Source: a virus
UHGV virus genome: UHGV-0135199
Length of the DNA: 19,248 nucleotides
Strand: one strand, 5' to 3'
The first letter of the stretch is position 1; each line of letters opens with the position of its first letter. Under the pieces are notes generated by a model. That model did no database searches. It was not told where the DNA came from and worked only from the letters and a program-made list of their open reading frames with translations. Made by a program: the position numbers and the translations under genes. This document shows, one piece after another, positions 3,919 to 15,471 of this stretch.

Positions 3919-4280
3919 CATTCATTCCCCAGTTCGGTGATGGTCAGCTCCAGCTTCCCACCTTTGGTAACAGGCATCTTCACAACACGGTAATCAACGA
4001 CCTGAGCATCATCCAGCCAGAAACTTGCTTTAGTGAGTGCGTCAAAAGCGGCTTTTTGCAGATTATCCAGGTCACGGCGACGGCGATCCGGCATGTGGCA
4101 CTCAATACGGATTTTCACTGGCATAGCCAGGCCGATATCCAGCATTGCGTTTTTAATGATTCGGGTGACGTTATCGCGGTATGCCTGCCCCTCTGCGCTG
4201 ACGTGCGTGCGCCCGCGATTATGGCGGTAATAGCGATTATTGCTCGGAGGCCAGGGTAATATGATACTGTAGGTATTCAC
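3918..4280 (-). CDS. rusA: Holliday junction resolvase RusA
   Basis: [38 protein letters not shown]... matches RusA of DLP12-type prophages; starts with GTG overlapping the ybcO stop. Confidence 0.9.
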
Positions 4281-4567
4281 GCCTTAATAACCCCCTCTTT
4301 CAGCCAGATAACCTGTGTTCTCGCCATACCTTCCAGCGCGCATTCTTTTGCATATGCAGCATCGACAAAATGTGTGCGGCGGTCGATTTCGTCGTGGCAG
4401 GCAGAACATGCAATGGTGGCAATCAGGTCTGGCGGTTTGGTACCGGTGCCGCACAATCCAGCCAGCCGGATATGTGCCAGTACAGACGTTTCAGGGTTGC
4501 CATTACATACGCCAGGGATTCTTACCTGGCATTCCCGACCACGCGCTGCTTTTCTCAAATCAGCCAT
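4277..4567 (-). CDS. ybcO: YbcO-like nin-region protein (DUF1364, putative nuclease)
   Basis: [35 protein letters not shown]... matches DLP12 YbcO as recalled; AGGAGG SD upstream of ATG at 4567. Confidence 0.8.
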
Positions 4568-12328: not shown

Positions 12329-12400
12329 GCGCGGCGTTACCGCATACCAATTACGCTTCACTCGAGGCGTTTTTCGTTATGTATAAATAAGGAGCACACC

Positions 12401-12565
12401 ATGCAATATGCCATTGCAGGGTGGCCTGTTGCTGGCTGCCCTTCCGAATCTTTACTTGAACGAATCACCCGTAAATTACGTGACGGATGGAAACGCCTTA
12501 TCGACATACTTAATCAGCCAGGAGTCCCGAAAAATGGATCAAACAATTATGGCTATCCAGACTAA
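12401..12565 (+). CDS. cIII: cIII (inhibitor of FtsH-mediated cII degradation)
   Basis: Hand-translated [54 protein letters not shown]; AAGGAG SD; not on the ORF track (54 aa). Confidence 0.9.
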   Translation: MQYAIAGWPVAGCPSESLLERITRKLRDGWKRLIDILNQPGVPKNGSNNYGYPD

Positions 12566-13053: not shown

Positions 13054-13839
13054 ATGAGTACAGCACTCGCAACGCTGGCTGGGAAGCTGGCTGAACGTGT
13101 CGGCATGGATTCTGTCGACCCACAGGAACTGATCACCACTCTTCGCCAGACGGCATTTAAAGGTGATGCCAGCGATGCGCAGTTCATCGCATTGCTGATC
13201 GTCGCCAACCAGTACGGCCTTAATCCGTGGACGAAAGAAATTTACGCCTTCCCTGATAAGCAGAACGGCATCGTTCCGGTGGTGGGCGTTGATGGCTGGT
13301 CCCGCATCATCAACGAAAACCAGCAGTTTGACGGCATGGACTTTGAACAGGACAACGAATCCTGCACATGCCGGATTTACCGCAAAGACCGCAATCATCC
13401 GATCTGCGTTACCGAGTGGATGGATGAATGCCGCCGCGAACCATTCAAAACCCGCGAAGGCAGAGAAATCACCGGACCGTGGCAGTCGCATCCCAAACGG
13501 ATGTTACGGCATAAAGCCATGATTCAGTGTGCCCGTCTGGCCTTCGGATTTGCTGGTATCTATGACAAGGATGAAGCCGAGCGCATTGTCGAAAATACTG
13601 CATACACTGCAGAACGTCAGCCGGAACGCGACATCACTCCGGTTAACGATGAAACCATGCAGGAGATTAACACTCTGCTGATCGCCCTGGATAAAACATG
13701 GGATGACGACTTATTGCCGCTCTGTTCCCAGATATTTCGCCGCGACATTCGCGCATCGTCAGAACTGACACAGGCCGAAGCAGTGAAAGCTCTTGGATTC
13801 CTGAAACAGAAAGCCACTGAGCAGAAGGTGGCAGCATGA
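13054..13839 (+). CDS. bet: Bet (Red-beta single-strand annealing protein)
   Basis: [59 protein letters not shown]... matches lambda Bet. Confidence 0.95.
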
Positions 13840-14516
13840 CACCGGACATTATCCTGCAGCGTACCGGGATCGACGTGAGAGCTGTCGAACAGGGGGATGA
13901 TGCATGGCACAAATTACGGCTCGGCGTCATCACCGCTTCAGAAGTTCACAACGTGATAGCAAAGCCCCGATCAGGAAAGAAGTGGCCTGACATGAAAATG
14001 TCCTACTTCCACACCCTGCTAGCTGAGGTTTGCACCGGTGTGGCTCCGGAAGTTAACGCTAAAGCGCTGGCCTGGGGAAAACAGTACGAGAACGACGCCA
14101 GAACCCTGTTTGAGTTCACTTCCGGCGTAAATGTTATTGAATCCCCGATCATCTATCGCGACGAAAGTATGCGCACCGCCTGCTCTCCCGATGGTTTATG
14201 CAGTGACGGCAATGGCCTTGAGCTGAAATGCCCGTTTACCTCCCGGGATTTCATGAAATTCCGGCTCGGTGGTTTCGAGGCCATAAAGTCGGCTTACATG
14301 GCCCAGGTGCAGTACAGCATGTGGGTGACGCGAAAAGATGCCTGGTACTTTGCCAACTATGACCCGCGTATGAAGCGTGAAGGCCTGCATTATGTCGTGA
14401 TTGAGCGGAATGAAAAGTATATAGCGAGTTTTGACGAGATGGTGCCGGAGTTCATCGAAAAAATGGACGAGGCACTGGCTGAAATTGGTTTTGTATTTGG
14501 GGAGCAATGGCGATGA
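13836..14516 (+). CDS. exo: Exo (Red-alpha 5'-3' exonuclease)
   Basis: [65 protein letters not shown]... matches lambda exonuclease. Confidence 0.95.
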
Positions 14517-14695
14517 AACATCCTCACGATAATATCCGCGTAGGCACGATCACTTTCGTCTACTCCGTTACGAAGCGAGGCTGGGTATTTCCCGGCCTTT
14601 CTGTTATCAGAAATCCACTGAAAGCACAGCGGCTGGCTGAGGAGATAAATAATAAACGGGGGGCTGTATGCACAAAGCATCTCCTGTTGAGTTAA
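14507..14695 (+). CDS. Lambda orf61-like hypothetical protein
   Basis: [62 protein letters not shown]; start overlaps the exo stop. Confidence 0.7.
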
Positions 14696-14859
14696 GAACG
14701 AGTATCGAGATGGCACATAGCCTCGCTCAAATTGGAGTCAGGTTTGTGCCAATACCAGCAGAAACAGACGAAGAATTTCATACGTTAGCCACATCCCTTT
14801 CACAAAAGCTGGAAATGATGGTGGCGAAAGCAGAAGCAGATGAGAGAGACCAGGTATGA
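14668..14859 (+). CDS. Lambda orf63-like hypothetical protein
   Basis: [63 protein letters not shown]; overlaps neighbours on both sides. Confidence 0.7.
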   Translation: MHKASPVELRTSIEMAHSLAQIGVRFVPIPAETDEEFHTLATSLSQKLEMMVAKAEADERDQV

Positions 14860-14936
14860 CAACCACTGAATGCATTTTTCTGGCAGCGGGCTTCATATTC
14901 TGTGTGCTTATGCTTGCCGACATGGGGCTTGTTTAA
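14856..14936 (+). CDS. Possible 26-aa hydrophobic peptide coupled between orf63 and orf60a
   Basis: Hand-translated MTTTECIFLAAGFIFCVLMLADMGLV; ATG overlaps orf63 stop (ATGA), stop overlaps orf60a start (TAATG). Confidence 0.35.
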   Translation: MTTTECIFLAAGFIFCVLMLADMGLV

Positions 14937-15151
14937 TGACACCTCAGCAAGAAAACGCCCTTCGCAGCATTGCCCGTCAGGCTAATTCTGAAATCAAAAA
15001 AGCCAGACAGCAGTTTCCGGATAAAAACGTCGATGACATTTGCCGTAGCGTACTGAAGAAGCACCGCGAAACGGTAACGCTGATGGGATTCACACCGACT
15101 CATTTAAGCCTGGCGATCGGCATGTTAAACGGCGTTTTTAAGGAACGGTGA
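14936..15151 (+). CDS. Lambda orf60a-like hypothetical protein
   Basis: From ATG at 14936: MTPQQENALRSIARQANSEIKKARQQFPDKNVDDICRSVLKKHRETVTLMGFTPTHLSLAIGMLNGVFKER; an in-frame ATG at 14870 would give a longer product. Confidence 0.7.
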   Translation: MTPQQENALRSIARQANSEIKKARQQFPDKNVDDICRSVLKKHRETVTLMGFTPTHLSLAIGMLNGVFKER

Positions 15152-15173
15152 ACATGAAAAGCAAAATTATCAG

Positions 15174-15197
15174 GGAGCTACAGGCTCCTTTTTTATT
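15174..15197 (+). terminator. Intrinsic terminator downstream of orf60a
   Basis: ggagc-tacag-gctcc hairpin followed by TTTTTTATTATT. Confidence 0.5.
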
Positions 15198-15249
15198 ATT
15201 CGCATTTACCCTCAAGCGTATTAACCAACAATTCAGGGATTAATGAAAG

Positions 15250-15471
15250 ATGGCAGACATCATTGATTCAGCATCAGAAATCGAAGAATTACAGCGCAAT
15301 ACAGCAATAAAAATGCGTCGTCTGAACCACCAGGCTATATCTGCCACTCATTGTTGTGAGTGTGGCGATCCCATAGATGAACGAAGACGCCTGGTCGTTC
15401 AGGGTTGTCGGACTTGTGCAAGTTGCCAGGAAGATCTGGAGCTTATCAGTAAACAGAGAGGTTCGAAGTGA
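15250..15471 (+). CDS. TraR/DksA-family C4 zinc-finger protein (lambda orf73-like)
   Basis: MADIIDSASEIEELQRNTAIKMRRLNHQAISATHCCECGDPIDERRRLVVQGCRTCASCQEDLE...; CxxC-x17-CxxC zinc finger typical of TraR. Confidence 0.8.
   Translation: MADIIDSASEIEELQRNTAIKMRRLNHQAISATHCCECGDPIDERRRLVVQGCRTCASCQEDLELISKQRGSK

Follow-up and report, generated by a model that had tools for sequence, protein, structure and literature searches.

The DNA analysed here (the window) is the whole 19,248-nucleotide stretch of the virus genome UHGV-0135199, read as one strand from 5' to 3'. On its + strand runs a lambda-like early leftward (pL) operon, an orientation confirmed by a match to the cIII thermoregulator; lambda is the reference temperate phage, and in Shiga-toxin phages the exo-xis block influences the lysis-lysogeny decision and prophage induction. 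The genes follow each other in the order exo, orf60a, orf63, small ORF, orf61, and orf73. The features used in this study are collated below:

12388-12446, + strand: Rfam Lambda_thermo (cIII thermoregulator), full-length match, 88.5 bits
13054-13839, + strand: bet
13836-14516, + strand: exo
14513-14695, + strand: orf60a, 60 aa, DUF1317, upstream of the small ORF
14668..14859, + strand: orf63, 63 aa, Pfam DUF1382 (E=5e-30), its stop overlapping the small-ORF start
14840..14849, + strand: weak Shine-Dalgarno-like purine-rich run ATGAGAGAGA 5' of the small-ORF ATG
14856..14859, + strand: ATGA overlap of the orf63 stop and the small-ORF start, the ATG being invariant in 210 loci
14856..14936, + strand: small ORF, 26 codons plus TAA, encoding MTTTECIFLAAGFIFCVLMLADMGLV, with codon-level constraint and hydrophobicity
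14867..14869, + strand: TGA that closes the frame of the annotated lambda orf61 (ATG 14840); lambda has GGA
14870..14872, + strand: in-frame ATG of the 93-aa "extended orf61" of the 933W and phi24B annotations, judged not to be a real start
14934..14938, + strand: TAATG overlap of the small-ORF stop and the start of the 71-aa orf61 (one shared base)
14936..15151, + strand: orf61 homologue, 71 codons (WP_000188870.1 has the same start; PHROG 303), probably coupled to the small ORF
15148-15243, + strand: 31-codon ORF MNMKSKIIRELQAPFLLFAFTLKRINQQFRD, its GTG start overlapping the orf61 stop (GTGA)
15250-15471, + strand: orf73, TraR/DksA zinc-finger protein

The small ORF shares bases with both of its neighbours. 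Its ATG (14856-14858) overlaps the TGA of orf63 (14857-14859), and the final A of its TAA (14934-14936) doubles as the first base of the ATG at 14936. Both overlaps had been described in an earlier reading that was made from the letters of the window (the sequence-only reading), together with an ATG at 14870 in frame with the downstream gene, and all three were confirmed, the last giving a protein of 93 aa. The same reading had wedged the small ORF between orf63 and orf60a, of which the first neighbour stands and the second does not: annotated relatives (434, mEp332, 933W, and lambda) show a homologue of orf61 at the downstream position, and the label "orf60a" for that gene was therefore wrong. 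The TAATG end of the window is a minority allele caused by a C>T exchange at 14934 (Q27*), which is present in 2 of the 210 loci compared. The usual allele, found in lambda, 434, mEp332, and most others, has 27 codons, ending with ...LVQ followed by TGA, and in these relatives the end (CAATGA) forms a second four-nucleotide ATGA overlap, between the small ORF and orf61. The junction at the end of the small ORF is thus ATGA, GTGA, or TAATG among relatives, and the one at its start is ATGA in 210/210 loci, in both of the upstream contexts described below. ATGA junctions were also located at bet/exo (13836-13839) and at exo/orf60a (14513-14516).

Some observations concern the genes downstream. 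In RefSeq, the 71-aa protein (14936-15151) is often named "cell division protein ZapA"; this name is poorly founded because its Pfam ZapA match (E=0.014, 16.1 bits) is far under the cut-off of 23.8 bits. A hairpin resembling an intrinsic terminator (15172-15190, followed by the T-run TTTTTTATTATT), probably lambda tL3, lies inside the 31-codon ORF, and the latter (15148-15243) is presumably the 31-aa "orf2313". The review PMC8614690 attributes the 31-aa "orf2313" to ribosome profiling and, for the lambda data of Liu et al. (2013), gives a 7-aa and a 31-aa frame as the sole extra ORFs of the region.

The peptide encoded by the small ORF ranks first by GRAVY (1.82) when all window ORFs of 20-40 aa that begin with ATG (92) are compared, and its best 19-residue Kyte-Doolittle mean is 2.33. 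The description as a hydrophobic peptide was borne out in this way. The hydrophobic stretch (C6-A21), bounded by E5 and D22, runs for 16 residues without interruption, which is little for a membrane span. Lys and Arg are both absent, so the peptide would be missed by tryptic proteomics, which helps to explain why it has been overlooked. No family match for the peptide was obtained in Pfam, PHROGs, or NCBIfam, a tblastn search against phages gave no hit outside the E. coli lambdoid phages (best other match E=5), and a full-text literature search with the peptide sequence yielded no paper. Both the 27-aa and the 26-aa form already have identical entries in GenBank and UniRef, labelled "hypothetical protein". 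In the 90% cluster of the peptide, two 428-aa proteins (P0006 and P0007) were rejected as unrelated; they were placed there by a clustering artefact in the protein collection.

The frame is widely kept among lambda-like phages, as the sequence-only reading had proposed to check. Lambda J02459 has the ORF intact in its 27-aa form (complement(30925..31008), the peptide at 30928-31008, within the annotated orf61 and in a different frame), and matches to the peptide were found in 176 phage records, with at least 99% identity in 138 of them. Among 5426 complete E. coli genomes, 3142 (~58%) contain the DNA of the small ORF, at 4247 places in total, and the body of orf61 is found at 4400 places; the small ORF is kept in ~96% of orf61 copies and missing from ~3.5%. 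Given this retention and the top hydrophobicity in the window, the small ORF is more than a chance feature. Among the loci compared, it was never found without orf61 downstream.

The surroundings of the small ORF are mosaic. At 24 loci, a phage N-6-adenine (Dam) methyltransferase gene takes the place of orf63; homology to the window then begins at the small-ORF ATG, which is preceded by GGGAGG and again forms an ATGA overlap (for example in L107). At the other end, the locus L111 (which stands for a protein cluster of 344 members) lacks the small ORF. An unrelated gene of 250 aa precedes orf61 there at a distance of 7 nt, and orf61 begins at the ATG of the 71-aa reading, 7 nt downstream of a GAGG of its own. 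Joints at both ends of the small ORF imply that the conserved orf61 unit is 71 aa long. The small ORF is also dispensable, since copies exist in which it is absent, deleted, or disrupted: in L087 (Escherichia sp. E1V33), a 14-nt deletion joins the Shine-Dalgarno-preceded ATG to the orf61 frame (93 aa), and in a decaying prophage of E. coli EC13 an IS3-family element is inserted in it (L238:601-1250).

Further observations were made on these loci. The L087 region that holds the fused frame (371-1438 and 1435-1716) also encodes a 355-aa protein with a DGQHR motif, judged by eye to be DndB-like, in place of the upstream orf60a and orf63. Another IS3-family insertion lies in orf61 of the decaying prophage GCA_026134875.1 (L110:740-2010). 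The search for distant orf61 homologues revealed no deep divergence, all matches below 80% identity being error-ridden or disrupted (numerous frameshifts in L108 and L109, the IS insertion in L110). A scan of genome contigs yielded mostly lambda DNA in unrelated "genomes", and L087 was the sole informative divergent locus. The loci L088-L101 are contigs of ~48.4-48.5 kb, or fragments, with the seven-A allele of lambda (see below), from assemblies of Shewanella, Pseudomonas, Bradyrhizobium, Paenibacillus, Kitasatospora, and others; they are almost certainly lambda DNA contamination or spike-in and not real prophages.

Codon-level variation was determined on the pooled loci that carry the segment (viral contigs, genomes, and annotated records). 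The 210 loci represent 110 distinct 484-nt haplotypes and 26 small-ORF haplotypes, and the following counts were obtained:

Small-ORF frame: 13 synonymous, 9 non-synonymous, 1 stop (last codon); P=0.0065; pN/pS 0.23
93-aa / lambda-orf61 frame: 4 synonymous, 18 non-synonymous, 1 stop; P=0.9
orf61 (71 aa): 22 synonymous, 25 non-synonymous, 1 stop; P=0.012; pN/pS 0.33
orf63 (179 loci): 11 synonymous, 28 non-synonymous, 0 stop; P=0.52; pN/pS 0.70

From the types of mutation seen, a synonymous fraction of 0.30 would be expected in the small frame. The 23 variants within the small ORF fall on third (14), first (6), and second (3) codon positions; the small frame and the 93-aa frame differ by Fisher's test (P=0.013), and the signal is at least equal in strength to that of the neighbouring orf61. 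The synonymous-site comparison suggested by the sequence-only reading thus found coding constraint, and this purifying selection is specific to the small frame. Among the variants present in at least nine loci, seven of eight are silent in the small frame (at 14864, 14867 (two), 14888, 14921, 14927, and 14936) and in the 93-aa frame each of them replaces a residue or introduces a stop; the only non-silent one is T3A at 14862 (9 loci). At 14867, G>T in 69/210 loci changes ACG to ACT, and at 14936, A>G (9 loci) converts the orf61 ATG into GTG, still a start codon; both exchanges are silent in the small ORF. The non-synonymous variants are mostly rare and conservative (T3A, T3I, F8L, F15L, V26I, and V26A), and the less conservative E5K, G12V, and D22N occur in one or two loci each, as does T3I. 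Variant density is not lower in the small ORF (23 in 84 nt) than in the flanking genes (39 in 192 and 48 in 216), so that constraint at the nucleotide level is not indicated. No more than 23 variants, some of which were seen once in metagenome or draft contigs, underlie the test, because divergence is shallow (relatives at least ~94% identical) and homologues are confined to E. coli-type lambdoid phages; its noise can be judged from the bona fide gene orf63, which shows no synonymous excess, and from an antisense frame that shares wobble positions with the small ORF and reaches P=0.05. The lack of a synonymous excess in orf63, although its product is a structurally characterised protein, could be due to relaxed selection, diversifying alleles, or draft-contig noise.

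The strength of Shine-Dalgarno (SD) sequences was expressed as the duplex energy with the 16S rRNA tail. That of the small ORF (-5.6 kcal/mol, ending 6 nt before the ATG) is comparable to those of orf73 (-4.9 kcal/mol) and orf61 (-4.7 kcal/mol), and the GGGAGG of the Dam context reaches -10.3 kcal/mol. The ATG at 14870 has the weakest and worst-spaced SD of those compared (-3.8 kcal/mol).

With moderate confidence, the segment is read as a translated, selected, and translationally coupled gene for a small membrane peptide within the pL operon, one that has gone essentially unrecognised. The suggestion of a translated micro-protein made in the sequence-only reading is favoured, and the extension of the downstream gene to 14870 disfavoured, by the frame-resolved variation and by the start/stop overlaps, which are kept in an unrelated upstream context. 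As far as comparative sequence data can tell, the small gene is very probably real and coding, with a narrow distribution and with its product already deposited as an uncharacterised entry. Ribosomes that end orf63 at the UGA would restart on the overlapping AUG (AUGA), aided by the modest purine-rich SD; where the Dam methylase replaces orf63, the strong GGAGG would aid the restart instead. They would then make the peptide of 26-27 residues and stop over the AUG (or GUG) of the 71-aa orf61. As the SD of orf61 is weak, this gene may be translated largely by re-initiation, so that peptide synthesis and orf61 expression would be chained in the manner of the ATGA junctions at bet/exo and exo/orf60a. 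Since the peptide sequence is under selection, the peptide probably acts on its own; it most likely inserts into the inner membrane and may belong to the small accessory or host-modulating factors encoded in the exo-xis region.

The segment might instead be an untranslated spacer or a 5' leader of orf61, in which the open frame, the hydrophobicity, and the overlaps would be coincidences of a T-rich stretch passed on among close relatives. With relatives as similar as those compared here, intactness alone says little, ~3.5% of orf61 loci do without the ORF, its deletion or disruption is tolerated, and RefSeq/PGAP leaves the 76-nt stretch without annotation and calls the 71-aa orf61. An untranslated spacer is nevertheless unlikely, as the variants cluster at third positions and are silent in the small frame, their density is not reduced, an ATGA start overlap is found again after another gene, together with a strong SD, and the mosaic joints coincide with the ends of the ORF. 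An RNA element is not indicated either: the predicted fold of the 14836-14960 RNA was no better than those of shuffled sequences (z=+1.19), and no Rfam match was obtained over 14600-15300 at E<=1. Two further candidates were tried and rejected. A leader peptide with attenuator was discarded because the fold does not rise above the shuffled level and because the nearest terminator-like hairpin (15172-15190) lies downstream of orf61; the toxin of a type I toxin-antitoxin pair was discarded because the ORF is embedded by codon overlaps, because no antisense promoter lies opposite, and because neither the fold (z=+1.19) nor Rfam gave support.

Translation of the ORF is also part of another explanation, according to which it would be a pure coupling device that delivers ribosomes to orf61 while the peptide itself has no function. 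The stop/start overlaps at both ends fit such a role, as does the orf61 SD, which is weak (-4.7) where the ORF is present and replaced by an own GAGG (-5.6, a small difference) where it is absent. A pure coupling ORF should, however, not conserve amino acids, whereas a pN/pS of 0.23 was found; moreover, the replacements are mostly conservative (T>A, F>L, V>I, V>A) with E5K, D22N, G12V, and T3I rare, and strong hydrophobicity is retained in every allele. We therefore regard a functionless relay as rather improbable.

Distinctly improbable is the explanation implied by the published annotations, namely that the segment is the N-terminal part of orf61, starting either at ATG 14870 (93 aa) or at the lambda ATG 14840, and that the small ORF is accidental. 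It has the entries for 933W (L0070), phi24B (vb_24B_7c), and lambda as well as the review PMC8614690 on its side; the alternative frame is open in the consensus, gene callers often pick the 93-aa form, and in L087 the 14-nt deletion does place an SD-preceded ATG in the orf61 frame. The variants are not distributed as this explanation would require. A synonymous excess in the orf61 frame was looked for across 14856-14935 and was not found: few variants lie at its wobble positions, and the 4/18/1 split (P=0.9) tells against the extended reading from ATG 14870 that the sequence-only reading had offered. Nor does the extension accompany the orf61 core everywhere, as L111-type loci start orf61 at the 71-aa ATG and TGA at 14867 shuts the lambda-type start in 69/210 loci. 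RefSeq, too, calls the 71-aa form, and of the SDs compared that of ATG 14870 is the poorest. AlphaFold2 modelling of the 93-aa form from a single sequence, which is weak evidence, gave residues 1-20 a pLDDT of 41-53 compared with 74-93 for the helical core; phi24B Orf61 has likewise been modelled as residues 24-93, with residues 1-23 left out (PMC8614690).

The sequence of lambda orf61 itself also tells against this explanation. In J02459, the A-run corresponding to 14990-15000 of the window contains seven A's, as compared with six in the window and most relatives, and owing to the seventh A the annotated lambda orf61 (61 aa; 30839-31024, L235:385-570) is a frameshifted truncation of the 71-aa protein. 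It consists of MRETRYDNHG, then the alternative frame, and then the frameshifted part; that it is a truncated remnant was likewise noted in PMC8614690. Judged from these comparisons, the published start of orf61 is probably wrong.

Finally, a minus-strand gene (a 61-codon ORF, 14923-14738, that shares wobble positions with the small ORF) is very improbable as the source of the periodic variation. In the window this ORF is uninterrupted, and its variants divide into 10 synonymous and 13 non-synonymous (P=0.05), but some reflection of the sense signal is to be expected in any antisense frame with the same wobble positions. The ORF would run against both orf63 and the pL transcript, promoter-like sites are missing opposite the small ORF and nearby (the sole minus-strand site is at 15224-15195), its ATG becomes ATA in the 9 loci with C>T at 14921, and past the mosaic joint its sequence is wholly different (44 aa in the Dam context).

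If the coupled small gene is real, the reference starts of orf61 in lambda, 933W, and phi24B would be wrong, the functional unit would have 71 aa, and lambda would possess a frameshifted orf61 remnant next to an intact small ORF. The mutants described in the literature would be affected as well. In the Delta-orf61 mutants of lambda and phi24B, the whole annotated orf61 was replaced, and altered lysogenisation, prophage induction, and phi24B adsorption were reported (PMC6213356). Because the whole annotated gene was replaced, the small ORF was removed too, and the phenotypes of these mutants would need re-attribution. We tentatively propose that the peptide is a functional membrane micro-protein hidden in orf61 of lambda and of Stx phages, a possibility that we consider doubtful at this stage; if it holds, some or all of the "orf61" phenotypes would belong to the peptide. 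Over-produced "Orf61" was found to be insoluble (PMC6213356), and a spurious Cys-rich N-terminus of 22 residues, which the construct used for purification would have carried, may explain this aggregation. (The "Orf61" of PMC9239242 is a protein of the Vibrio phage VP882 and irrelevant to lambda orf61.) With a real gene at this place, the early host-takeover set of a very widespread prophage family would gain a further small membrane peptide.

Among known systems, the annotated orf61 (lambda complement 30839..31024, 933W L0070, phi24B vb_24B_7c; PHROG 303 and PHROG 26061) is the closest and occupies the same DNA, with the small ORF wholly inside it. It is read in another frame, and the 93-aa and 61-aa database proteins include the stretch; the small ORF is at odds with this annotation and not a part of it, as the extension lacks comparative support, whereas the small frame has it. 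Type I toxin peptides, often encoded on prophages, are short and hydrophobic, and their lengths (DinQ 27 aa, ShoB 26 aa, IbsC 19 aa; also Hok/Ldr/TisB) span that of the small ORF, which differs from them by having no promoter or leader of its own, no antisense RNA gene, no structured RNA, and no basic residues. Closer in type are very small E. coli proteins with a single span in the inner membrane, such as KdpF (29 aa) and AcrZ (49 aa), of which KdpF is not known to contain Lys or Arg either. Like these, the small ORF encodes fewer than 50 aa and lies within an operon, and its one hydrophobic stretch may be of comparable, helix-like length, although its peptide has no sequence similarity to any family in Pfam, PHROGs, or NCBIfam. 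Within the phage itself, the bet/exo and exo/orf60a junctions possess the identical four-base overlap. The small ORF differs from those genes by its presumed coupling at both ends, and, short as it is, it could in this way serve as a relay from orf63 to orf61.
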